DNA of 30,878 nt. Origin: a virus. Shown here piece by piece: positions 7,406 to 30,318 of the stretch. Below the pieces are notes generated by a model. That model was not told the origin of the DNA, searched no databases, and saw only the letters and a program-made list of their open reading frames with translations. Position numbers and translations under genes: made by a program. Numbering within the stretch: position 1 is the stretch's first letter; the number at the start of each line of letters is the position of its first letter. The stretch lies in the UHGV virus genome UHGV-1533542; one strand, 5' to 3'.

Positions 7406-8133
7406 TATCGTTTCGCTTTGTGCTCATCCCAGCACGTTTTGCACCATGCCATTAAGCCGTCCGCATTTTGATTATTAGGGTAAAAGCTGGTTCGTTTTCT
7501 GCGGACATTACAAATTGGGCACCACTTCATATGGCGTGTATTCTTTGGGCCATCGAGACACCTTGCACACCACTTAGTCAATCCATCTGGATTTTTTGAC
7601 GATTTCCTGAATTTTTCATATGGAAGGTTTATTCTGCATCGCAAGCACTGCTTGCTACCACTTGAAACTCTGTTAGCTGATTCTTCTTTTGGCGGCGATG
7701 CAGAAGGTATTCTTGCTGGCTCTGATACTGCCTGAGGTGCTTTTTTAGATGACTGAGACGATATGTCATCACCAGGGAATCTTCCATGATATGCCGGACG
7801 CGTTGACACTCCAGGTGGAAGCTCAGCTGTAAACGGCTTTGGCTGAATCAGTTGCCTCTCTTTTGCTAACTCCTGCTGTTTATAATATGTCTGGATTACC
7901 GCACTATCATAAGCAGGAGGTGCGGAAATATTAGGCGCATTACCTCCAGTTTTTTGAAACTGAGTAGAGGTGTGTTCTATCACCTGTGTACGATTAATCG
8001 TTATCTCCCCATCTTCGGTCTTTATCGTTTTGTTATGATTAACGACCGTACGATCAGAGATCTTAGTCTTGTTCTGGTTGATAACGTAAATAATCACCGC
8101 AACCACACCAACAACTATCCAGAAAACTTCCAT
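7405..8133 (-). CDS. membrane-anchored protein with C-terminal tandem zinc ribbons, function unknown
   Basis: SD GAGGA 6 nt before ATG; N-terminal TM helix (VFWIVVGVVAVIIYVI); Pro/Ser-rich linker; C-terminal Cys cluster CLRC...WCARC...WCPIC...WCKTC (two CxxC-N~20-CxxC units). Confidence 0.7.
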   Translation of the reverse strand: MEVFWIVVGVVAVIIYVINQNKTKISDRTVVNHNKTIKTEDGEITINRTQVIEHTSTQFQKTGGNAPNISAPPAYDSAVIQTYYKQQELAKERQLIQPKPFTAELPPGVSTRPAYHGRFPGDDISSQSSKKAPQAVSEPARIPSASPPKEESANRVSSGSKQCLRCRINLPYEKFRKSSKNPDGLTKWCARCLDGPKNTRHMKWCPICNVRRKRTSFYPNNQNADGLMAWCKTCWDEHKAKR

Positions 8134-8261: not shown

Positions 8262-8527
8262 ATTTACATCGCACTCCTCTTGTGCCATAGTAATCGGGCA
8301 CTGGATTTTGCCAGTGCCGGGATTGGCGTCCCGGGTTACTACAGAGGCACATATGCCGCATAAGCGGTTTTTTTATGTGTAAAGCGCACCTATTCTATGG
8401 TGGGCTGTGTGGGGGCACCGAAAGGTGCGCCGGGTCCTTTGTAGCCGGTTACGCCAACCCTGCACAGTTCACCACCAACCGATTGGCGTCGGTAGTGGTG
8501 ATTAACCTAACTACAAAGGTGATCACT

Positions 8528-10148: not shown

Positions 10149-10160
10149 GTGACATGTCAC
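10149..10160. repeat. perfect 12-bp palindrome GTGACATGTCAC, copy i
   Basis: Exact palindrome between the stop of the 46-aa ORF and the minus-strand terminator; identical copies at 27433-27444 and 29698-29709. Confidence 0.8.
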
Positions 10161-17662: not shown

Positions 17663-18126
17663 TATTTTCTCTCCATGTGAAATCTGTGGAAATTAAGACC
17701 AAGAGCACCATAAGGCGCGGCTTCTTCAAGCCTGAATCCAAGCCAGTGCAGCCATGCTTTGGCAACATGGTTTCGCTCGTCGACGTAGTTTTCCAGGCGC
17801 GGATAAACTGCCAGCATCTGCTGCAATACAGGGCGGCAGTGGCGAAGAAATGTCTTCTGATATTTTTCAATACGGCTGGTTCCGACCAGCCATGGCGTAC
17901 CATTGCCACCGATCATTGACGCCGGAGATACACCAAACATGGTTACCAGTTCTCCGTTCGCGAACCCTGACCAGGCCATAGTCGCAGTGCGCAGACCAAC
18001 GCGCAGCGCATCTTCGGTAGTCATCAGCGATACCGCATACAGTTCGTCAATATCAGCCTGACGAACATCCGGCAAAATCATCTGAAGATGCTCTTCGGTA
18101 GCGGGAATAATTCGAACATCGATCAT
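17662..18126 (-). CDS. virion-module protein (154 aa), function unknown
   Basis: ATG overlaps upstream stop (ATGA); translationally coupled within the tail/internal-protein operon. Confidence 0.7.
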   Translation of the reverse strand: MIDVRIIPATEEHLQMILPDVRQADIDELYAVSLMTTEDALRVGLRTATMAWSGFANGELVTMFGVSPASMIGGNGTPWLVGTSRIEKYQKTFLRHCRPVLQQMLAVYPRLENYVDERNHVAKAWLHWLGFRLEEAAPYGALGLNFHRFHMERK

Positions 18127-20597
18127 CAGAATCCCCCAACAGTAAGGCGAGGAATAACGGCAAGAACAGACAGTGGCAACGGGTCAAGCTGACGGATTCT
18201 TACACGTCCGTTTTTGCCCCAGTTACTGTCCAGTTTCACTTCTACTTTTCCGGTAGCATCATCAACAGAATCATCGTAGAACTCGAATTCACGCTGTGGA
18301 TATTCGTACCATTTACCGCCGGGCGTAGTCGCCCAGATGCCGCGACTGGCATTCACAACCAGAGTAACGGACGGGATCACCTGTTTTTTGTCCAGCAGCG
18401 TTTCCTGTCCGCTAATGTTGATATCCAGTGTTTCGAATTCAGCAGTTATTGGCAGGCCGATGTGCACAACAGCCCCCGGTGATTCCAGCGTGACGGCACC
18501 TCCGGAAACCACTTTCTGTGGTTCCACGTTCGCATCAGAGAGAATGTTTACGGTCTGGCCTTCAAGATGAGACATGCCTCCAAATGTCCGGCGCGCCATC
18601 TGCCAGTTCGTGGTGGCCGCATTCCTGAGGGATGGCGGGACGTTCCTGTTAGCACGAACCACTACAGCGGTATTGCTGGTTACAGAAATAATGTCGCAAC
18701 GTAATTCTTTTGACACTTCATCGCCAGTATCAGGATCAGTTCCGGTATAAGGGAACTGTAGTTGCGCACCAACATCACTACTGGTGAAGTACGCACCACC
18801 AGAAACACTGATTGTATATTCCGCGCGGTAATCCCATTCACCAGAACCACCAGTGATGGTCATCGTTCTGTCAGACGTATTTCTTCCATCATAGCTAAGG
18901 CCAGAATCAACAAAGAAAGCATCTTCATCGCTGGTAAATAAACGGCTGGACAGTCTCTCGATGTATCTCACTGTTTGCCCGTTAACGGTTCTGTTAACGA
19001 CGAAATACACCGCATCTTCATTGCCTTCGCTGATACTGCATGTGCTTTCATATTTTCCGGTACTGGATTGTGGTGCCCATGCAAAAACCTGCTGATCACG
19101 CAAATAGGTCATCACCAGTAATTTACCGTCATCACGAATGCAGAAGGCGCTGGAGTAAGGGACAATCGAGAAGCACCAGTCAACAATGCTGTGCTTCTGA
19201 AAAAGATGATTGGCAAGGATGGTCAGGTCGTTCCCCTGATAGCCGTCAACATCGAATGAGTAGGCCAGATCACGGACAACACTGCCTTTCTCCTGGACGA
19301 ACAGAGCAATATTCGCCACGGCAATTGGTGGGACATTGCTCGAGCCATTTGATCCCTGAGAGCTGAATGCAAATGATGATGGGGTAAGCACTTTGTTCTG
19401 GTCGCCAGTGATGACGTACTCACCTCCGGAAGTCAGCGCCACCAGCGAACCAACATCAATCAGGTGACGGATCTCATTAACCTGACGCCCGGCATAGGTG
19501 TAGATAATTCTGTCGTCATCCTGCGTAGGATTGCTTTTGCCAAAATCCTTATAATCCCCGGTACGGCTGGCCCAGATAGTCTGAGGGAACGCAGTCGATG
19601 CGGCGAAGTAAAGGCGTTGTTGATAATAAACAACAGTGCCAGGATAACCGTTAATACTGTTCCAGGCATATTTAGCCCATTTATAGCTGGCATTATCCTC
19701 GCCAACTACCTGCGAAGGGATATAGGAAATCACCTCGGCAGTTGCAGTAGTTCCATTTGCAGCAGAGATACGGGCAATGCCAAAACCACTGTGCAGATAC
19801 TCCCACTCAATGCCGGTATCATCATCACCGGATCCGCCCCAGCCATCCCATGATGTGCCTTCTGTATGCGAAGGGCGCAAAGTGCCTGTTTTGCCTGCTG
19901 TAACGGCGCGATAGTAGTTACTGTCTGCACGGCGAATATCGCCAATCGACGTACTCTTACTGGTTTCCCATACCGGCACAGAATCCACTGCAGGCTGTTC
20001 CAGATAGAACAATTTGCCTACCTGCTCCGCGCCAAAAATTGAGGCGCTTGCCGTTAACGTAATTGTCCCGGTGCTGGCGCTGGCATAAACCGTCACTGAC
20101 TCGTCAATATTGATATCTTCAAATGGCCCGTTCTTCGTTACCACATCAACCAGTTGCCAGTTGTCATGCGCATAGCGGCGCAACTCTTTCGGCGGGTATG
20201 CCGGATGAACCAGCGTAAGCACGTCTGCGCTTTGCGTGAATTTAATTCGGAACAGATCGGCTTCAGTATATGGCGTGGCAATTTCATAAATAACATTGCT
20301 GCTGTTCAGCACCAACGCACCATCTTTGATAACGCGCATGTACTGGTGTCCGAACTCCAGAGCATAAGTCTGAACCGTCGAGAACTGGAACGGGATCAGG
20401 CGGCATTTCCGATTTGGGTATTTGGCGGCACCGACAAAACGCGTACCAGGTCGATTCTCAACGCCGCCATACTGCCGCACGATAAAGTTATCGCACTTGC
20501 GCAATGCCACCTGGTACTTCGCCATGTCGATACGACCGTACAACGACGGTCCAATCTCACCACCGGCAAAGCTGGGCTGGATCCAACTGATAGCCAT
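18126..20597 (-). CDS. tail tube / nozzle-like protein (823 aa)
   Basis: ATG overlaps upstream stop (ATGA); size and position match the tail tubular protein B analogue of podoviruses; no motif-level confirmation. Confidence 0.7.
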   Translation of the reverse strand: MAISWIQPSFAGGEIGPSLYGRIDMAKYQVALRKCDNFIVRQYGGVENRPGTRFVGAAKYPNRKCRLIPFQFSTVQTYALEFGHQYMRVIKDGALVLNSSNVIYEIATPYTEADLFRIKFTQSADVLTLVHPAYPPKELRRYAHDNWQLVDVVTKNGPFEDINIDESVTVYASASTGTITLTASASIFGAEQVGKLFYLEQPAVDSVPVWETSKSTSIGDIRRADSNYYRAVTAGKTGTLRPSHTEGTSWDGWGGSGDDDTGIEWEYLHSGFGIARISAANGTTATAEVISYIPSQVVGEDNASYKWAKYAWNSINGYPGTVVYYQQRLYFAASTAFPQTIWASRTGDYKDFGKSNPTQDDDRIIYTYAGRQVNEIRHLIDVGSLVALTSGGEYVITGDQNKVLTPSSFAFSSQGSNGSSNVPPIAVANIALFVQEKGSVVRDLAYSFDVDGYQGNDLTILANHLFQKHSIVDWCFSIVPYSSAFCIRDDGKLLVMTYLRDQQVFAWAPQSSTGKYESTCSISEGNEDAVYFVVNRTVNGQTVRYIERLSSRLFTSDEDAFFVDSGLSYDGRNTSDRTMTITGGSGEWDYRAEYTISVSGGAYFTSSDVGAQLQFPYTGTDPDTGDEVSKELRCDIISVTSNTAVVVRANRNVPPSLRNAATTNWQMARRTFGGMSHLEGQTVNILSDANVEPQKVVSGGAVTLESPGAVVHIGLPITAEFETLDINISGQETLLDKKQVIPSVTLVVNASRGIWATTPGGKWYEYPQREFEFYDDSVDDATGKVEVKLDSNWGKNGRVRIRQLDPLPLSVLAVIPRLTVGGF

Positions 20598-21202
20598 CAG
20601 GACAACCTCGCAATGGTAAACTCGTCAACCGGTGGCTGTGGTTCCTGTGATTCATTCTGGCTATGCGAGCCAGCACTAAGAATCACGCGATTGTACATAT
20701 TGAGGGCAAACGTACCGAGGTCTGCATTCCCAGTGAGCGCCATGTTAATAGCTGCCGCAAGACGCCAGGCCAACGCCTCCATAAAAATGGCATCAAACAT
20801 GTTCACATCTGAAACGCGAGAGACATACTTGAGCCATGCCTGCGGCTGGTCTGTGTAGATCAACTTTCCTGTTCCGTTGGTGTCTGCACCAACTTCGTAC
20901 TGAACGCGCATTGCTGCTGTTGGATTGCGTACACCAGGAAGCATAATTTCAGTAATGCGCAGACAATCGGACGGGTACTGGTACGCATATTCCCAGTCAG
21001 GCGGTGGATTGCTCGTATCTGCAAGCGCCACGCGTTTGGTAGCAAAGTTCCAGTCAAAATCAGAAAGAACAGCATCACGGCAGGCCTCAAAGTGCAGCGA
21101 ACATTCCCCCGCTTCCTTGCTGGCTTCCGTCAGGCTGTTAATACTGCGGCTGTTGCCAATATTGGACAGCGCACGATTACAGATCTCTACTACAGAGGCC
21201 AT
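20597..21202 (-). CDS. virion protein, possible head-tail adaptor / tail tubular A analogue (201 aa)
   Basis: ATG 21202 with SD GGAGG, overlapping upstream stop; function by position only. Confidence 0.6.
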   Translation of the reverse strand: MASVVEICNRALSNIGNSRSINSLTEASKEAGECSLHFEACRDAVLSDFDWNFATKRVALADTSNPPPDWEYAYQYPSDCLRITEIMLPGVRNPTAAMRVQYEVGADTNGTGKLIYTDQPQAWLKYVSRVSDVNMFDAIFMEALAWRLAAAINMALTGNADLGTFALNMYNRVILSAGSHSQNESQEPQPPVDEFTIARLS

Positions 21203-21525
21203 CACTCACCTCCGTTACCGTACAGAGTTTCAGCCGCTGATTTTTCTACATCCCTGGAAACAGGAGCGATCGCCATATCAGTGATCTGCAGATCGGCGCT
21301 GCGATTAACACCATCGTCAGTTTCTCTGGCAGACAGGCCTCGAATAACAGCCTTTGCAGTTATCATCACTTCTGTTCCGACGCCCTGAGGTTGCGCCTTC
21401 AGCTTATTCAATGTGTCGTTATTAAGAGTGATGCACAGCTCCCACGGGTATTCATCGCGAGTTCTGGTTTCTCCGCTCTCATCCTGGTAGCTGTCAGTGC
21501 CGGTTTTGAGGTTTACGAGTTCCAT
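21202..21525 (-). CDS. small virion-module protein (107 aa from ATG 21525)
   Basis: SD AGGAG 5 nt before ATG 21525 (ORF opens at GTG 21531); preceded by hairpin 21542-21559. Confidence 0.6.
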   Translation of the reverse strand: MELVNLKTGTDSYQDESGETRTRDEYPWELCITLNNDTLNKLKAQPQGVGTEVMITAKAVIRGLSARETDDGVNRSADLQITDMAIAPVSRDVEKSAAETLYGNGGE

Positions 21526-21541
21526 ATACACTCCTGCAATA

Positions 21542-21559
21542 AAGGGGCCGAAGCCCCTT
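21542..21559 (-). terminator. possible intra-operon attenuator hairpin
   Basis: AAGGGGC-CGAA-GCCCCTT stem-loop; on the minus strand followed by TTTATTG; lies between head-proximal genes and downstream genes. Confidence 0.3.
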
Positions 21560-21575
21560 GTCGGATTCGCGAGGC

Positions 21576-21911
21576 TTACACGCCCAGTTCTTTACGCTTA
21601 TCTGCGATCTTCTCTCGGAGCGTTTCGGCTTTAGCGTTATGGTGTGGCTTCTCGTTAAAGAGCAATTCGTACTCTTCACGGAGCTTATCCAGTTCACCAT
21701 CATCTGACACATCGTTGATGATTTTGGTGCTGGTTGCTGCCATAGACACCTTTCCTGCTACCTTTGCTTTTGCCTGTCTGGCTGCATCGTTAACAGGTTC
21801 CAGTGCGCTACCAGGCTCACCTTCGTATTCGATTTCTGCCCCCTCCGGCCACAGTGTGTTATGGATATGAGAGAGGCGCAGAACGCGGTATCTTGGTTTC
21901 TCACCTGACAT
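21576..21911 (-). CDS. small head/virion protein (111 aa from ATG 21911)
   Basis: SD AAGGTG 6 nt before ATG 21911 (ORF opens at GTG 21920, right after upstream stop). Confidence 0.6.
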   Translation of the reverse strand: MSGEKPRYRVLRLSHIHNTLWPEGAEIEYEGEPGSALEPVNDAARQAKAKVAGKVSMAATSTKIINDVSDDGELDKLREEYELLFNEKPHHNAKAETLREKIADKRKELGV

Positions 21912-21921
21912 CGATATCACC

Positions 21922-22359
21922 TTAACCAGTTACTTTTGAGCGGATCGGGTACGGCGTATTGGCATCAACATCCAGACTGATACCCGCAGTGAATTTGCCG
22001 GCCGTTAGTGGGCCAGTTGCGACGGAGTAGTTAACACGCAGATATCGCTGAACACCGGCTGGCACCTTTGCAGAAACAACTCGCTTACCTGCTGTCAGGG
22101 TGGCCTTTGCCAACGCACCACTATCATAAATAGTGGTCCAAGAGCTGTTATTCTCACTCGTCTGCAACTGGATGTTTACAGTTGCCTCACCACTTGCCGT
22201 GGCGGCTTCGTTAACCAGCACCCAAAACTCAAGCGGGTAACCCACACCGATATCGCGACGGTTTCCATCAATTGGACCGAGATCGATTACGTCAGTAGAA
22301 GCCGCGGTATTCGTAACCGCCTGAGCTTCGGAGAACATCAACAGTTTGTCGGTGATCAT
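21922..22359 (-). CDS. possible capsid decoration / minor head protein (145 aa)
   Basis: ATG with SD GGAGAAAGAAG; directly downstream of major capsid gene; Thr/Ala/Gly-rich beta-type sequence; function by position. Confidence 0.6.
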   Translation of the reverse strand: MITDKLLMFSEAQAVTNTAASTDVIDLGPIDGNRRDIGVGYPLEFWVLVNEAATASGEATVNIQLQTSENNSSWTTIYDSGALAKATLTAGKRVVSAKVPAGVQRYLRVNYSVATGPLTAGKFTAGISLDVDANTPYPIRSKVTG

Positions 22360-22410
22360 CTTCTTTCTCCATTAGTGGGTCTGTTACGACCCACAGGTTA
22401 ATAACAGGCG

Positions 22411-23403
22411 TTACACCACGCGGGCTTCTGTTTCCAGAAGCGCATCAGTTTCACGGATTGGTACACCACGGAATGACGTCCACCACTCGCCTTCAGTCTC
22501 TTTTACGCTAATCGCCAGAGATGTTTTCTCCAGAGACTGCAGATCAAGAGCCTGGCCTACAGTGCGGTTCATGTAGAACACCGGGCGACCCATGCCACGG
22601 TTTGGAATGCGATGCAGTGCTTTAACCATCAACTTCGCAATATTTGCGGCAGAGGAAGGTTCTGAAAGATTGCTGACATCGATGTTTGCAATGCGAACAA
22701 CATAACGCCAGTCACGCAGAGCAAGTCCGTTGTCCCATTTGTAATGGGTACGGTAGCCTTCGTACTTGCCGCCATTAGCATCTTCCAGTGTCACCTGGCC
22801 TTTATCTTCCATCTGAATGCCAGCCTTCTGCCCTTTCGGGAAGATGCCATGCACGGTGTTTTCGCCCCACACCACTAACCAGATTGAGGTGTTATCTGTG
22901 CCCGTGCCACCAGCATCAATGATGTTCTGAGCATTACCTGCAGACAGGCTGGAATAGCGGGAGGACAGTCCCATAAACTGCTGAGGGTTAACGCTGGAAT
23001 CACCATAAAACAGCGTCTGCGCCATCTGCTGATTCATCGCTTCAATAAATGCGCGGTCTTCAGACAGGCGGAATTCGGCGGTATTGCCGTTCAGATCAGC
23101 CAGTGACTTATCGACTTCAGCATAGGTTTCCAGCATGCCAACGGAATCGGTTACCTGCACTGTGGTTGATTTGCTTGGCTGTACGCCATAGTTCAGCAAA
23201 CGCCAGGTAGCTGAAGGTAAACCAGAACGAATGGTGGTTCGGTGTCCGGTAGGAAGGTTCCCTTCGACAAAAGGCATATCCTGAAGGATCGGGTTAGTTT
23301 GACCGAGAAGCTCGATAATCTTATCGACTTTCCCGTTTGGATCGACGCGCTTACCCCAGTCAGCCAGCGTTAGCGCAGTTAAGCCTTTAACAGCCATTGT
23401 CAT
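22411..23403 (-). CDS. major capsid protein
   Basis: 330-aa ORF after the scaffold gene with SD GAGAGGAA; size and position typical of HK97-fold major capsid proteins of podoviruses. Confidence 0.85.
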   Translation of the reverse strand: MTMAVKGLTALTLADWGKRVDPNGKVDKIIELLGQTNPILQDMPFVEGNLPTGHRTTIRSGLPSATWRLLNYGVQPSKSTTVQVTDSVGMLETYAEVDKSLADLNGNTAEFRLSEDRAFIEAMNQQMAQTLFYGDSSVNPQQFMGLSSRYSSLSAGNAQNIIDAGGTGTDNTSIWLVVWGENTVHGIFPKGQKAGIQMEDKGQVTLEDANGGKYEGYRTHYKWDNGLALRDWRYVVRIANIDVSNLSEPSSAANIAKLMVKALHRIPNRGMGRPVFYMNRTVGQALDLQSLEKTSLAISVKETEGEWWTSFRGVPIRETDALLETEARVV

Positions 23404-23411
23404 TTCCTCTC

Positions 23412-24107
23412 TTATTTGCCATAGAGCACTTCGGCCGCACTACGCTGGCCTTCATTACCACCGGTGACCATGCCATCTTCAGACATCGCCTTTCCGATTT
23501 TCACGAACGTTTTGACCAGGTCAGGGTGATTACCCAGTCCGGTGGTGTTCAGATATTCTTTGAGTTCAGGTGTCCCGAACTGGTCAAGCGCACGCTGTGC
23601 GGCGCTAAGGTTAGAAATCAACTTGTCGCCACCGATTTCTTTGTCAGCTTTTACATCCGCAGCCCACTGCTCGGTTGTTTTCTGCCAGGCTTCTGCCTGG
23701 CGCTGCTGAACACCTGCCAGAATCTTCGGATAAGCATCAACCAGCTTTTGCGCTTGCTCGTTGGTCAGGTTTAGTTCTCGCGCCACCGGCTCGAATTCCT
23801 TCAACGCTTCTGTATCCAGCTCTACGCCTTCGGCAGCCTGAAACTCGTACTTCTCAGGCGCACCCTCTGGTTTATCGCCGCCCTTTTTTTCATCCTGCTT
23901 ATCGTTTTCAGGCTTTTTGTCATCAGCAGGTTTATCGCCATCAGAAACAGGTTGTGGCTTATCACCTTCCTGTTGTGATGGATCACCAACTGGAGCAGGG
24001 TTATCATCTGCATGCGCTGACGGTTCTGACGCAGCCGGAGCTGCCCCACCATCGACTTGTTGCTCATTGCAAAGACGGCGATACAGCAAACGCTCAAATA
24101 AACTCAT
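23412..24107 (-). CDS. scaffolding protein
   Basis: ATG 24107 with SD AGGAG (ORF opens at GTG 24113); highly acidic, Pro/Asp/Lys/Glu-rich low-complexity N-terminal part and helical C-terminal part; between portal and capsid genes. Confidence 0.75.
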   Translation of the reverse strand: MSLFERLLYRRLCNEQQVDGGAAPAASEPSAHADDNPAPVGDPSQQEGDKPQPVSDGDKPADDKKPENDKQDEKKGGDKPEGAPEKYEFQAAEGVELDTEALKEFEPVARELNLTNEQAQKLVDAYPKILAGVQQRQAEAWQKTTEQWAADVKADKEIGGDKLISNLSAAQRALDQFGTPELKEYLNTTGLGNHPDLVKTFVKIGKAMSEDGMVTGGNEGQRSAAEVLYGK

Positions 24108-24109
24108 GA

Positions 24110-24406
24110 TCACTCCTGTTCACTGGCCTCTTTGGCCATCTTCAAATACTGTTCAGGGCAATGCGCCATAACGCGCTGAAACAGTTCCAGCGCCAGATTG
24201 CGTTGCCCCTCATTAAATGCCATTGCCATAGCATCCATCGGAGAGATAGCGGAAAACACCCGGCCTTTCTCCAGCACCGACCAGACAACGCGACGCCCCT
24301 GTTCACTGCTCATGACAAAGCGAATGTCATCAATTTCACGCTGTGCCATGTCACGTTGCTTACGGGCGTTTTCTTCTTTCAGTTGATCGTCTTCGTAATC
24401 TGTCAT
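24110..24406 (-). CDS. small acidic protein between portal and scaffold genes (98 aa)
   Basis: ORF start overlaps portal stop; function unknown. Confidence 0.55.
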   Translation of the reverse strand: MTDYEDDQLKEENARKQRDMAQREIDDIRFVMSSEQGRRVVWSVLEKGRVFSAISPMDAMAMAFNEGQRNLALELFQRVMAHCPEQYLKMAKEASEQE

Positions 24407-26082
24407 TGTGATTGCCCACCCTGACCACTAACTGCATTCGCCATAGCTGACAACACACTCGGATCCGAAGTTTTAGCTTCGCTTAGCGTCTTGGCCCCCT
24501 GTGCCGCCGCCATCCCCATCGCCATCATTTGTTGCTGCTGTTGTTGCTGTGCCCGTTGCTGGCGAGCCTGCTCAACCTGTTCCTGCGGAACAATGACGGT
24601 TGGAGACACTCCGGACATATCAGCGAATGCATCGATCGCCTGATCAACGTTGAGTTTGTCGAGAGCTTCTGGTTTCGCTTGCGCAAGTTGACCAATGAAG
24701 TTAACCGTGGACGCCAGACTGGACAGGCCGATAGACTTCTGCGCCTGAGCCATGACGGAAATGTATTCGACCTTCAGGGGCATGCCTTCCATCGCGTCAG
24801 GCGGTGGCGGCAGCATGTTTTTGCGCACCATCATCGAGAAAGCGCGGTCAATGAGAGGATTAAGACATTCGTCGTTCAGACGCTCCAGAACCGGCCCCAA
24901 CATCAGAAGTTTTTCTTCTTTCATTTCGATCACCGCTTCAACAGGCATCGAGCGGGTATTGATGTTCTGCAACATCATGAACAGATCGACAAAGTAGGCG
25001 CTGTTAATGATTTGACGAGTGTCCTGAATGTCTGCCACCAAATCTGCTGTACTGGGGTTAACCAGATAAGCAGGCCTGAAGCCATCCTGACCAGTAATCT
25101 GATCGATATACGTGATGTCGCCAGGAAGAAGGGAGGCGCGCTGATTCTTGAGGGAAGTCGGAGCAACCATCGGCGGATTGGTGGCTTTATCAATCAACTG
25201 CGACTTGCGCTTCTGGAGAAGCTGCAATGCCTTAACAGGTCCAAGCGCCAGCATACCCGGGCATGATGATCCATAAACATCTTCGCCGTTAACTTCCCAG
25301 CGCGGAGCCATAATTGGAAACTCATCGAATCCGGACTCACGCAACAACTTGTCGTTATCTCCACCAACCTCGTAATAAACCGATTTGAATGGCTTGTTCT
25401 TGCTATCCAGCTTCGATGTATCGCGGTCAATGTTCGGGTAAACCGAATGCATCACTTCGATCCACTTCTCGTAGGTGCCGCTTTCCCACATGCTTTTTAC
25501 GGATTCGCTGACGTTATTTAGCCCGAACTCCTGAACAAGCTGACGAACAGTCATAGAGAACTTGCGAAAACAGGTGTCAACACTGCCACGAGGTGAGTTA
25601 GCCAGGTAGTAACTGCCTATCGGGAATGGCATTGTGCGAATGATGTCCTCGTCATCCTCCAGCACTGCCATTGCACCAGTGCTGTATGTGCCGAGGCTTC
25701 CGTATAACTGCGGAAGAGACTGGTAGAGATTCGACTTATTGAACATATCGTTCATGCGGTTCTGAACTGCCTCAAGCCACAACTTAACAGGGCCATAATC
25801 CATCATTTCAGGATCTGGCGTAGCCAGGCGAAACCACGGACGCGCGGGGCTTGTGATGCCTGACATCATGCCGCTGGCGAGAGTGCGCGCCGCCATAGTC
25901 CCGGTCGAATCAATAATGCGTGTATTGCGCCGATCGTTACGGTTGGCCTCAGAAGTCAGAAAGCGGGAACCACGCGGGTTGATGTAATCACTCAACTCGC
26001 GCCAGTGCGGCTCGAACGACTGACGCTCGCTTTCAAGTTGTGCGAACTGTTTGTTCAATCGCTCTTTAGTTGTTTCCGCCAT
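24403..26082 (-). CDS. portal (head-to-tail connector) protein, T7 gp8-like
   Basis: 559 aa; Gln/Ala/Met-rich C-terminal tail (QQRAQQQQQQQMMAMGMAAAQGAK) like the T7 gp8 C-terminus as I recall it; located between terminase and scaffold. Confidence 0.88.
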   Translation of the reverse strand: MAETTKERLNKQFAQLESERQSFEPHWRELSDYINPRGSRFLTSEANRNDRRNTRIIDSTGTMAARTLASGMMSGITSPARPWFRLATPDPEMMDYGPVKLWLEAVQNRMNDMFNKSNLYQSLPQLYGSLGTYSTGAMAVLEDDEDIIRTMPFPIGSYYLANSPRGSVDTCFRKFSMTVRQLVQEFGLNNVSESVKSMWESGTYEKWIEVMHSVYPNIDRDTSKLDSKNKPFKSVYYEVGGDNDKLLRESGFDEFPIMAPRWEVNGEDVYGSSCPGMLALGPVKALQLLQKRKSQLIDKATNPPMVAPTSLKNQRASLLPGDITYIDQITGQDGFRPAYLVNPSTADLVADIQDTRQIINSAYFVDLFMMLQNINTRSMPVEAVIEMKEEKLLMLGPVLERLNDECLNPLIDRAFSMMVRKNMLPPPPDAMEGMPLKVEYISVMAQAQKSIGLSSLASTVNFIGQLAQAKPEALDKLNVDQAIDAFADMSGVSPTVIVPQEQVEQARQQRAQQQQQQQMMAMGMAAAQGAKTLSEAKTSDPSVLSAMANAVSGQGGQSQ

Positions 26083-26730: not shown

Positions 26731-26807
26731 GTGGCATTAGCTCAGTTGGACAGAGCAACCGCCTTCTAAGCGGTTGGTCGCAGGTTCGAATCCTGCATGC
26801 CACGCCA
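26731..26807 (+). tRNA. tRNA-Arg (anticodon UCU), phage-encoded
   Basis: Cloverleaf read by eye: acceptor GTGGCAT/ATGCCAC, D-arm GCTC..GAGC, anticodon stem ACCGC/GCGGT with loop CTTCTAA (anticodon TCT), T-arm GCAGG-TTCGAAT-CCTGC, encoded CCA; body close to but distinct from E. coli argU as I recall it. Confidence 0.88.
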
Positions 26808-26970
26808 GAATCACGCCTAAGGACCGTGATGCCAGAAGTTCCAGGGGCTTGGCGGTGATGGTTTCCCTTGAAGGACTATCACCGCCCTTTTTACAGCAGG
26901 ACGCCATTGCGATGACTTCATGCTGTAAACCAGTACAGCCACGGAAGGCATAACTCATTGCTTCCAGTTC

Positions 26971-26994
26971 GCCCGGTTCGCCGGGCATTTTTTT
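26971..26994 (+). terminator. intrinsic terminator downstream of tRNA, abutting the RBS of the 27006 gene
   Basis: GCCCGG-TTCG-CCGGGC followed by ATTTTTTT, which runs into SD AAGGTG; a second weaker hairpin GGCGGTGAT...ATCACCGCC + CTTTTT at about 26851-26890. Confidence 0.6.
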
Positions 26995-27432: not shown

Positions 27433-27444
27433 GTGACATGTCAC
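27433..27444. repeat. perfect 12-bp palindrome GTGACATGTCAC, copy ii
   Basis: Exact copy 5 bp after the stop at 27428 and 5 bp before terminator hairpin 27449-27476. Confidence 0.8.
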
Positions 27445-27448
27445 AAAC

Positions 27449-27476
27449 AGCCAGCCGATGAGCTGGCTTTGTTTTA
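27449..27476. terminator. intrinsic terminator (bidirectional candidate) between the 140-aa gene and terL
   Basis: Stem AGCCAGC/GCTGGCT with 6-nt loop followed by TTTGTTTTA on the plus strand; A-rich on the other side. Confidence 0.65.
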
Positions 27477-28994: not shown

Positions 28995-29587
28995 TGATTA
29001 CCATCCTGACGTTCTTTGAGTCGCTTCCTGGCTGCTGCTATGCGATCAGCAATTGTCACATTCACATTAACATCCAGACGTTCTTTGAATGCGTTGACAT
29101 CAACATGCTTACCAATCAGCTCAAGGTTCTTCACCTTGTCAGGCCATTTAATTTTTTTGAGGATTGTCTCTATTGAATCCTCGTTCATGTTCATGATGGT
29201 CGATGACAGATCAAAGCCACTAAGCGTAGTGCGCCAGATTTTCGGCCACTCACGGATTGGTTTAAGGCTCCCATCGTCGTTGAGGATGTCGATCACGTCC
29301 ATCTGGTCGATCTCCACCAGGCGCATGAGAACGTAATCAGCACTGACACGCATTCGTTTGTTGCGCTCCTCCATCAACTCGGCAATCCGTTTCTGAATGC
29401 GTTCATCGCGCATCATGACACTGGCTTTAACTGCCGCTGTATTTGGGGAGAATCCTGCGTTAATCGCAGCCTGAGTCTGGTTTTCAGGCGTTTTGATGTA
29501 TGACTGGCAATAAGCCTCCTGCATTGCTGTGAGCGGCTTAAATTGCGTTGATTTGCGTTTATAGGTTTTAGGTTCAGCAGGCATCAT
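28991..29587 (-). CDS. terminase small subunit
   Basis: Start set at ATG 29587 (MMPAEPK...) because the TTG-opened extension to 29665 contains an intrinsic terminator; HTH-type segment TAMQEAYCQSYIKTPENQTQAAINAGFS typical of small terminases (memory). Confidence 0.8.
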   Translation of the reverse strand: MMPAEPKTYKRKSTQFKPLTAMQEAYCQSYIKTPENQTQAAINAGFSPNTAAVKASVMMRDERIQKRIAELMEERNKRMRVSADYVLMRLVEIDQMDVIDILNDDGSLKPIREWPKIWRTTLSGFDLSSTIMNMNEDSIETILKKIKWPDKVKNLELIGKHVDVNAFKERLDVNVNVTIADRIAAARKRLKERQDGNQ

Positions 29588-29630
29588 AACCACCGTGGTA
29601 ATTGTTACCGTTGTGGTAATAGTACCATGC

Positions 29631-29656
29631 AAAATAAAGCCGCCATAGTTGGCGGC
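29631..29656 (-). terminator. intrinsic terminator immediately upstream of terS
   Basis: GCCGCC-ATAGTT-GGCGGC hairpin followed on the minus strand by TTTATTTT; lies between the nin-like genes and the terS ATG. Confidence 0.6.
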
Positions 29657-29697
29657 AGTATTCAAAATCCATCAAATTCATCATGCATAATCTACTC

Positions 29698-29709
29698 GTG
29701 ACATGTCAC
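29698..29709. repeat. perfect 12-bp palindrome GTGACATGTCAC, copy iii
   Basis: Exact copy overlapping the stop codon of the 112-aa Zn-finger gene, about 40 bp upstream (minus sense) of the pre-terS terminator. Confidence 0.8.
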
Positions 29710-30044
29710 ACTATTAATTTCGTTTCATGCCAGCCTTTAGTCACCCAGCATTGCGAGTCACCATTACACGGGCATGAATTAACTGGAACTCTCTCGCCGC
29801 ACTTACCGCAACGTTTTCTGCTGATCGATTTTATACGCCCGCGCACGCGTGCATCATCCTGGCGGATCAGTAACGCTATATACTCACCAAATTCGTAAGG
29901 CGCACGCCCGGGGCGACGCGTGGCACAGTTACGCTCCAGCATTTCAATTTCCTGAGCATCAAGCACAATCTCCAGCTTACGCACACCAGATGCAGCTTGT
30001 CTGGCTCTCTGAGCGGCTTTGCGCTCTGCTGCTGATTTAGCCAT
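29706..30044 (-). CDS. 112-aa basic protein with C-terminal Cys4 zinc-finger-like motif (possible late-gene regulator)
   Basis: ATG 30044 with SD AAGGT (ORF opens at TTG 30047); N-terminal basic helical region; C-terminal CGKCG...CPC; last gene before terS. Confidence 0.55.
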   Translation of the reverse strand: MAKSAAERKAAQRARQAASGVRKLEIVLDAQEIEMLERNCATRRPGRAPYEFGEYIALLIRQDDARVRGRIKSISRKRCGKCGERVPVNSCPCNGDSQCWVTKGWHETKLIV

Positions 30045-30318
30045 CAATATTTACCTTTATCGCGAACACCTTTACCGGTTTATCACCGAAGTGCGGATGT
30101 GTGATTGTCTTGATTTCATATCCGTCATACGGGACGTCAATTCTTCGGCTGGAATCGTCGCGCTTCGGATATCCCTTTGTGATAATCAGGCGGTCATACT
30201 CCCGGAACATAATTCGCTTATTCCAGTAGTCATTACACAGGCGATACTCTTCCGTTTTCTCTCCACGAATCATGGCATCGAAGTATTCACCTTTGACGGC
30301 AAGTTGCAGGTTAGCCAT
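30037..30318 (-). CDS. ASCH/DUF3850-like small protein (93 aa from ATG 30318)
   Basis: ATG 30318 with SD GGAGGTG 5 nt upstream, overlapping upstream stop (TAATG); family assignment from memory, low certainty. Confidence 0.5.
   Translation of the reverse strand: MANLQLAVKGEYFDAMIRGEKTEEYRLCNDYWNKRIMFREYDRLIITKGYPKRDDSSRRIDVPYDGYEIKTITHPHFGDKPVKVFAIKVNIDG

Follow-up and report, generated by a model that had tools for sequence, protein, structure and literature searches.

A hairpin between the shell and tail genes of an epsilon15-like phage as a probable leaky terminator in the late operon

Why does a long virion operon, in which almost every gene touches the next, carry a stable hairpin in one of its few gaps, between the genes for the capsid shell and those for the tail? 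The question is raised by the virus genome UHGV-1533542, of which one stretch of 30,878 nucleotides (the window, below) was analysed. A sequence-only reading of the window had placed a stem-loop at 21542-21559 (hairpin 1) and had suggested that it may be a partial terminator or an RNA-processing site setting the ratio of head to tail and internal proteins. Here, we weigh these and other explanations, and we find it probable that, within the late operon of virion genes, hairpin 1 acts as a leaky Rho-independent terminator, with the shell genes before it and the tail genes after it.

Around hairpin 1, a stretch of 4 kb shares 98% identity with Escherichia phages TL-2011b, phiV10 and phiv142-3 and with further members of the genus Uetakevirus. 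Its identity falls to 83% in Enterobacter phage Tyrion and to about 77% in Salmonella 65FD/PAT1 and a Klebsiella prophage. Judged by these matches, the window is an epsilon15-like podovirus of the genus Uetakevirus. All virion genes of the window lie on the minus strand. Their order was taken over from the phiV10 annotation (window coordinate = locus coordinate + 14499) and is as follows:

24403-26082, minus strand: portal gene (phiV10 annotation transfer)
24110-24406, minus strand: Bbp19-like gene (phiV10 annotation transfer)
23412-24107, minus strand: protease gene (phiV10 annotation transfer)
22411-23397, minus strand: major capsid protein gene (phiV10p10, 'major head protein'; 98% identity to phiV10)
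22375-22394, minus strand: hairpin 2, in the 51-nt gap after the capsid gene
21922-22359, minus strand: gene for a Bbp16-family cement/decoration protein of 145 aa, homologue of epsilon15 gp8
21576-21911, minus strand: gp9-like gene (111 aa, phrog_590), the last gene upstream of hairpin 1
21542-21559, minus strand: hairpin 1, in the 50-nt gap between the gp9-like and gp10-like genes
21202-21525, minus strand: gp10-like gene (107 aa), the first gene downstream of hairpin 1
20597-21202, minus strand: T7 gp11-like tail gene (phrog_394; epsilon15 gp11 note)
18126-20597, minus strand: large tail gene (phiV10 annotation transfer)
down to 10318, minus strand: genes for internal virion proteins and further large virion proteins
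past 10318, minus strand: a small ORF, then a terminator-like hairpin (10148-10131)

The location between head genes and tail or internal genes had been recognised correctly, with capsid and cement genes upstream and the gp10-like, tail and internal protein genes downstream. Apart from two longer gaps, neighbouring reading frames between the portal gene and 10318 either overlap or are separated by 2-14 nt; the gp10-like gene, for example, overlaps the start of the T7 gp11-like tail gene. In the approximately 16 kb of virion genes from the portal to the end of the gp17-like gene, gaps of at least 20 nt number only two (51 and 50 nt), and both are built alike: a spacer leads to a GC-rich hairpin, after which comes the ribosome-binding site.

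The plus strand at 21542-21559 reads AAGGGGCCGAAGCCCCTT, and the corresponding mRNA strand (21559 to 21542) is AAGGGGC-UUCG-GCCCCUU, which gives seven perfect pairs, five of them G-C, around a loop of 4 nt. The stem-loop and its stem were therefore reported correctly at the outset, whereas the loop quoted then, CGAA, is that of the plus strand, the loop of the mRNA being UUCG. Hairpin 1 folds with -12.1 kcal/mol (-9.6 if only the five G-C pairs and the loop are counted), and in a 121-nt piece around it both the MFE and the centroid structure contain it. With its closing pair the loop forms the extra-stable C(UUCG)G tetraloop on a GGGGC-UUCG-GCCCC core. Hairpin 1 is non-coding and lies past a stop codon in the direction of transcription, as expected for the location of a terminator: the gp9-like stop codon (TAA) is at 21578-21576 and the hairpin starts 16 nt later. 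On its 3' side follow UAUUGC (21541-21536), AGGAG (21535-21531), five bases and the ATG at 21525, in agreement with the original observation that the hairpin stands just before the Shine-Dalgarno sequence of the next gene. The elements around the stem are:

21560-21575, minus strand: 16-nt spacer GCCUCGCGAAUCCGAC, from the gp9-like stop to hairpin 1
21536-21543, minus strand: U-rich tract UUUAUUGC, directly 3' of the G-C stem
21531-21535, minus strand: Shine-Dalgarno sequence AGGAG of the gp10-like gene, right after the U-tract

The first two U's of UUUAUUGC are also able to pair with A21559 and A21558, and the tract counts as a tail only if these two outer A-U pairs are assigned to it. The T-rich tail on the minus strand that had been described thus exists on this assignment, but it is short and interrupted and its score (below) is marginal. 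The other half of the original proposal, a processing site of the RNase III type, can be excluded, as the stem of either hairpin has at most 7 bp versus the approximately 20 bp or more required.

A bare 7-bp hairpin is not rare in the window, which holds 29 perfect hairpins of at least 7 bp versus 10.4 +/- 2.8 in dinucleotide shuffles; the GC-rich subset (at least five G-C pairs) numbers 12 versus 2.3 +/- 1.5 in the shuffled sequences. The placement, on the other hand, is far from chance: by our own arithmetic, approximately 0.002 (0.2%) GC-rich hairpins are expected in a given 50-nt gap at the shuffled rate. A chance origin of hairpin 1 was rejected on account of its placement in the gap and its conservation in relatives. 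Hairpin 2, too, recurs in other genera. The Rfam 15 covariance-model search of 21400-22500 gave no match at E <= 10.

The anatomy of hairpin 1 resembles that of an intrinsic terminator. On the RNA strand such an element has a G-C-rich stem of about 5-14 bp and a loop of 3-8 nt, both of which are found here, followed directly by a U-tract of about 7-9 nt, where the window, with the stem taken as its five G-C pairs, has UUUAUUGC with 5 U in 8 and relatives have up to 8 U. A consensus terminator scan of the window listed neither hairpin; in the case of hairpin 1 this is explained by the extension of the stem over the A-U pairs, which leaves too few T's. We also computed a discriminant of hairpin energy and U-tail on the G-C core plus tail, with constants after d'Aubenton-Carafa et al. 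1990 and modern energies, so that the scores serve for ranking only. On this scale hairpin 1 reached +7, which is marginal, the Klebsiella variant +11, the Scandinavium variant +26, the Pantoea types +28 to +52 and the epsilon15 element +21, while the terminator-like hairpin in front of terS reached +21, the Buttiauxella variant (with a G-U closing pair) -15 and hairpin 2 -35. Against a terminator count the short and interrupted U-tract of the window, its absence from the output of the scan, the marginal score and the one relative (L089) in which a weaker stem, with a G-U closing pair, has a negative score.

We compared the gp9-gp10 gap among the annotated phages, 39 relatives of the Pseudomonas prophage, 80 close relatives from IMG/VR and 11 prophages from one-genome-per-species contigs, whose gp10 identity ranges from 87% down to 43%. 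A GC-rich hairpin with a U-tract occurs in 22 distinct variants, of at least four hairpin types, in phages whose hosts are E. coli, Klebsiella, Enterobacter, Salmonella, Pantoea and Pseudomonas:

E. coli, Enterobacter, Klebsiella, Salmonella 65FD, Kluyvera, Buttiauxella and others: GGGGC-UUCG-GCCCC, with the tails UUUAUUGC, UUUUUUGC and UUUCUUGC
Pseudomonas: the GGGGC-UUCG-GCCCC core of the E. coli type, with the tail UUUCUU(C/U)CC
Pantoea: GGGGCC-GG(A/U)(U/C)-GGCCCC, with tails from UUUCUUUUC to UUUUUUUUC
epsilon15 and Citrobacter: GC(C)GGGGCC-(A/U)UUC-GGCCCCGC, with the tail UUUUCUAU

Hairpin, U-rich run and Shine-Dalgarno sequence come in that order in every sampled lineage except the most distant, GC-rich relatives (L135-L138), in which the gp9-gp10 hairpin is missing, a point against the terminator reading. 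The U-tracts of the relatives are UUUUUUGC, UUUCUUGC, UUUCUUCC, UUUCUUUUC, UUUUUUUUC or GCUUUUCUAU, and some lineages have 7-8 consecutive U's after the stem. When pairs were counted over the 22 variants, the four G-C pairs adjoining the U-tract proved invariant in all of them, the next pair outward is A-U in some and G-C or C-G in others, a G-U being the intermediate, and in 8 of the 22 the outermost A-U pair of the 7-bp stem is not formed, with the T's retained there. These counts define the conserved object as a G-C stem plus a U-tract, and not as a 7-bp stem; judging from the alignment, this is what a terminator would need and not what a mere structural hairpin would. The UUCG sequence of the loop is not essential, since other lineages have GGAU, GGUU, AUUC or UUUC. 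In relatives which have hairpin 1, (A/U)GGAG is found at the same distance. Within the spacer from stop to hairpin, the GCCUC after the gp9-like stop is invariant in the enterobacterial lineage, and the following approximately 11 nt are variable and A/U-rich. In the stretch 21560-21578 (minus strand), this GCCUC has two possible partners, the GGGC of the final Gly codon and the 5' arm of hairpin 1.

A terminator at this place would have to be an incomplete one. A promoter scan of the minus strand from 21541 to 17691 found no promoter-like site, and since the genes downstream of hairpin 1 are indispensable, they would be transcribed only by read-through and termination must be partial. A weak to moderate terminator is thus what the position of hairpin 1 demands. 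Most phage terminators are leaky and serve to balance expression (PMC9163698); in LUZ7 more than 60% of the terminators have an efficiency below 50%, and leaky T7 terminators are cited in the same work (PMC9163698). A literature search for a transcriptome or termination assay of any Uetakevirus returned none, and the phiV10 reporter-phage paper, in which the insert is at recET, does not mention the hairpin 1 site. The suggestion of a partial terminator is therefore strengthened by the anatomy, the annotation of epsilon15 (discussed below), the conserved U-tract and the lack of a downstream promoter, and weakened by the poor tail and the silent scan.

The strongest competitor is an element for mRNA stability, and here the second hairpin is informative. 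It was said to follow the capsid gene at 22375-22394 without a T-tract, and this could be confirmed in full: hairpin 2 (22394 to 22375) is GUGGGUC-GUAACA-GACCCAC, with -12.4 kcal/mol, it starts 16 nt past the capsid TAA (22413-22411), and it is followed by UAAU-GGAG and the ATG of the next gene (22359). No U-tract follows it, either in the window or in the enterobacterial lineages. In an alignment of 16 distinct rows in one register (one flank base outside the stem was trimmed in five rows), 97.3% of the cells are paired, and four of the seven pairs are changed on both sides, in 17 such cells, the changes being G-C to A-U, U-A to C-G, and C-G to G-C or U-A. None of 500 shuffles reached the covariation score or the percentage paired, and slid controls were 25-51% paired. 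By this covariation, hairpin 2 is a conserved RNA secondary structure kept through compensatory changes. Its loops vary and are often stable tetraloops (GUAACA, UUAACU, UGCU, GAAA, GUAA, GUGA, AAUGA), and epsilon15 lacks it. The strong covariation in the absence of a U-tract makes us read it as an mRNA-stability element, our best guess being that it probably serves as an intercistronic stabiliser, that is, a decay barrier or 3'-end stabiliser for the capsid cistron. What would be gained is not obvious, as the downstream cement protein is needed in amounts similar to the capsid protein.

Two further structures lie near hairpin 2. Just upstream of it, within the last 30 nt of the capsid coding sequence, is a third hairpin of seven perfect pairs, which has a GNRA loop, GCUUCUG-GAAA-CAGAAGC (22424-22441, minus strand). 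In Pseudomonas prophages (L094, L100-L123) the gap between capsid and cement genes can fold into either of two hairpins that exclude each other, CCCGGC..GCCGGG or GAGCCGC..GCGGCUC, and the U-rich run UCCUUUCUCAUU follows. The GGAGAG Shine-Dalgarno sequence can be masked by a further stem. This gap differs from the enterobacterial hairpin 2 and is more terminator-like.

Could hairpin 1, too, act on stability only? It would then cause no useful termination, because of its weak tail or because the late polymerase is antiterminated, and would be a 3'-exonuclease barrier through which, once an endonuclease has cut downstream, the mRNA of the capsid shell lives longer. The C(UUCG)G tetraloop, together with the GNRA loops of hairpin 2, suggests selection for stability, the U-tract of the window is marginal, and hairpin 2, conserved without any U-tract, indicates that such elements exist in the operon. 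Moreover, the layout upstream of terS resembles a regulator-promoter-terminator antitermination unit, and an antiterminated late polymerase would largely ignore hairpin 1, which we count against the terminator reading. However, nothing in this explanation accounts for the U-rich run kept after the stem in every hairpin-bearing lineage, with 7-8 U's in some, and hairpin 2, unlike hairpin 1, has no such run in the enterobacterial lineages. An antiterminator identity of the 112-aa regulator upstream of terS is likewise unsupported: the protein matches only phrog_536, 'transcriptional regulator', and no Pfam, NCBIfam or PDB match was found for it. We therefore regard a role in stability only as rather unlikely, and retain the leaky terminator as the preferred reading.

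The region upstream of terS (29560-30047, minus strand) deserves a description of its own. It carries, in order, the gene for the 112-aa Cys-rich regulator (29706-30044), a promoter-like GTGACA-18-CATGAT and a terminator-like hairpin (29656-29639) of the form GCCGCC-AACU-AUGGCGGC-UUUAUUUUGC, after which comes the probable terS start. The layout recalls Q-PR'-tR' of lambda. If terS is started from the TTG at 29665 (224 aa, the phiV10-type annotation), its frame passes across this hairpin; a start at the ATG at 29584-29587, which gives 198 aa as in epsilon15, is more likely. A perfect 12-bp palindrome, GTGACATGTCAC, has three exact copies in the window, at 10149-10160, 27433-27444 and 29698-29709, and a copy with one mismatch at 24343. 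Each exact copy stands just upstream of a terminator-like hairpin, at 10148-10131 (minus strand), 27449-27468 (plus strand) and 29656-29639 (minus strand), respectively, and epsilon15 has the palindrome at the same place after gp49. In the window, no copy is found near hairpin 1. From this distribution, the palindrome may be a regulator binding site at operon boundaries.

Two non-coding RNA loci on the plus strand were also noted. Gathering-level Rfam matches lie side by side for the isrK Hfq-binding RNA (8298-8374, 56.7 bits) and the C4 antisense RNA (8393-8479, 79.5 bits); by these matches, the two (8298-8479, plus strand) are a P1/P7-type antisense immunity RNA pair in an epsilon15-like phage. 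A tRNA-Arg gene (anticodon TCT; 26731-26807, plus strand) lies opposite the late genes, between terL and the portal cluster, and overlaps the minus-strand ORF 26737-26988, a hypothetical protein in phiV10.

Since both hairpins stand directly 5' of a Shine-Dalgarno sequence, at a conserved spacing, hairpin 1 might instead serve the gene that follows. It might free the ribosome-binding site of the gp10-like gene from long-range pairing, or, after an RNase E cut in the spacer, which upstream of hairpin 1 is indeed A/U-rich and variable, become a 5'-terminal hairpin protecting the tail mRNA. Yet genome compaction would explain the tight spacing equally well, the cleavage is putative, the conserved U-tract would have no role, and most genes of the operon, with their overlapping or abutting frames, are translated well enough without a hairpin. 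Taken together, these two variants appear improbable to us.

The invariant GCCUC in the spacer leads to another suggestion, that of a translation-coupled attenuator. The segment AAGCCUC after the gp9 stop could pair with the 5' arm and loop (GGGGCUU) as an anti-terminator; a ribosome finishing gp9 would cover AAGCCUC, and termination would then track the coupling of translation to transcription. The neighbours of GCCUC vary in the enterobacterial lineage while GCCUC does not, the Pantoea lineage has another hairpin and another complementary segment at the same place (CCGGC...GCCGG), and in one relative (L092) the alternative pairing is the MFE structure. Against this, we estimate that a G-rich/C-rich complementarity of 5-7 nt is expected by chance approximately 0.07-0.8 times per gap; neither the Pseudomonas lineage nor that of epsilon15 has the complementary segment; the alternative pairing is, in the window, far less stable than the terminator hairpin; and covariation is not measurable, as both partners are invariant. 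We give this mechanism little credence, and just as little to its extension, in which the attenuator and the covarying hairpin 2 would form a two-element RNA device tuning head-to-tail output.

The direction in which hairpin 1 would act can be considered as well. As a bidirectional insulator it would mainly stop antisense (plus-strand) transcription through the late genes, and indeed the epsilon15 record has terminators annotated on both strands at the gp9-gp10 gap, and A's precede the stem in many variants. The upstream A's are, however, not conserved (unpaired in 8 of 22), there is no plus-strand gene or good promoter nearby, and the plus-strand tail in the window is GTCGGATT, which is not T-rich. 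A plus-strand terminator in the window was rejected, as there is no T-tract on that side; the chance that the hairpin is chiefly an insulator seems very slim.

Returning to the leaky terminator, the reading makes a demand on the genes at either side, namely that the abundant proteins be encoded before the hairpin. Taken at face value, the database label on the gp10-like gene would put an abundant coat or staple protein downstream: the 107-aa protein matches PDB 3j40_N 'gp10' (2.9e-21), Pfam PF21628 'Gp10-like, major coat protein-like' and phrog_825. However, Hryc & Baker 2022 re-examined the epsilon15 map with AlphaFold2 and found that the assignment of the 111-aa gp10 is probably wrong and that the 'staple' density fits a 130-aa protein (PMC9207676). 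The epsilon15 gp8 has 130 aa and is a Bbp16 homologue, and the 145-aa protein of the window matches the Pfam family Bbp16 at 5.6e-49, the BPP-1 cement protein (PDB 3j4u_H) at 2.9e-29 and a 'capsid decoration protein' (8cjz_B) at 5e-24. By length and by the homology to BPP-1 Bbp16, we identify the 130-aa staple protein as the product of the gp8-type gene, which lies upstream of hairpin 1, and the objection is thereby weakened. On these assignments, the capsid and cement proteins, of which the shell needs hundreds of copies, are encoded upstream of hairpin 1; downstream are the gp10-like gene, the gp11/gp12-type tail tube and the internal proteins. The name 'major coat protein' that Pfam and RefSeq give to the gp10 family looks misleading. 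It still counts against the terminator reading that the gp10 protein of epsilon15 is reported in virions (PMC9207676). A single-sequence AlphaFold model of the gp10-like protein (pLDDT 61, pTM 0.34) was of too low quality to be used in a fold search; a single long beta-hairpin is seen in it, in agreement with the 'two long strands' in PMC9207676. The placing of the cement-protein gene, as the Bbp16-family gene upstream, is the more useful by-product of this analysis.

If hairpin 1 is a leaky terminator, events may be pictured as follows. Host RNA polymerase would transcribe the portal, protease, capsid, cement protein and gp9 genes on the minus strand, and the nascent GGGGC-UUCG-GCCCC would fold while a weak rU:dA hybrid (UUUAUU) occupies the active site. 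Some polymerases would release at this point, and the rest would continue past the hairpin into the gp10-like gene, the genes of the tail tube and of internal/ejection proteins, and beyond. The terminated RNA would end in a very stable tetraloop hairpin, which should block 3'-to-5' exonucleases, and in the read-through RNA this hairpin would stand 6 nt before the Shine-Dalgarno sequence of the gp10-like gene. Through partial release together with an exonuclease-resistant 3' end, the mRNA of the shell segment, of whose products about 400 copies are needed, would be both made and kept in excess over the segment for proteins needed in about 12 copies or fewer. Termination, its efficiency and its effect on protein ratios are, in this scheme, what the sequence leads us to expect. 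In phiV10-type reporter phages, an insert upstream of the hairpin should then out-express an insert downstream of it. Hairpin 1 is an ordinary kind of element and changes no concept; if the reading is correct, it would be useful for the annotation of Uetakevirus, as the phiV10, TL-2011b and Tyrion records are without this feature.

Several known systems can be set beside these elements. Stem-loops which stabilise mRNA between the cistrons of polycistronic operons are well known, e.g., the REP sequence of malE-malF and the Rhodobacter puf operon. Hairpin 2 is like them in being stable, without a U-tract and placed after the most-needed gene, with its structure kept and its sequence and loop free; it differs in that the next gene (cement) is needed about as much as the capsid gene. 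For hairpin 1, a parallel of structure is offered by phage T4, in whose intercistronic regions C(UUCG)G hairpins reportedly occur (Tuerk et al. 1988). Common to both are the cUUCGg on a short G-C stem, the location in intercistronic phage mRNA and the unusually high stability; the T4 hairpins represent a structural motif and not a functional family.

The closest relative of hairpin 1 is already on record. The entry of the type phage epsilon15 (NC_004775.2) has a 'stem_loop, rho-independent terminator' at 7647-7686, in the gp9-gp10 gap, on both strands; in the phiV10 and Tyrion records the hairpin of this gap is not annotated. The two elements share the orthologous gap and strand, the GGGGC/GCCCC stem, a 4-nt loop, the U-tract and the Shine-Dalgarno sequence of gp10. 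The epsilon15 sequence, GC(C)GGGGCC-AUUC-GGCCCCGC-UUUUCUAU, has a bulged C in its stem of about 12 pairs, an AUUC loop and flanks of A4/U4, and is annotated as bidirectional, whereas the window has a 5-7 bp stem, a UUCG loop and a weaker tail and is unidirectional. With intermediates in Citrobacter, Pantoea and Pseudomonas prophages, hairpin 1 is by its sequence an orthologue of the predicted epsilon15 gp9-gp10 terminator. A terminator prediction thus exists at the same spot in the type phage, and the hairpin of the window is a new instance of it.

A parallel in function would be T-phi of T7 (Dunn & Studier 1983), which lies just downstream of capsid gene 10 and before genes 11 and 12. In both cases an incomplete terminator would stand in the virion cluster of a podovirus, with capsid shell genes before it and gp11/gp12-type tail genes after it; the T7 gp11-like gene of the window is two places downstream of hairpin 1. 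T-phi differs in acting on a phage single-subunit RNA polymerase, the polymerase in the window being presumed that of the host, and in its longer hairpin; it also follows the capsid gene directly, whereas hairpin 1 follows the capsid, cement and gp9 genes. The effect of T-phi is that capsid mRNA exceeds tail mRNA. If our reading is right, the window would represent one more phage with a weak terminator in a single late operon, in which the capsid-shell mRNA is made in large excess over the tail mRNA.
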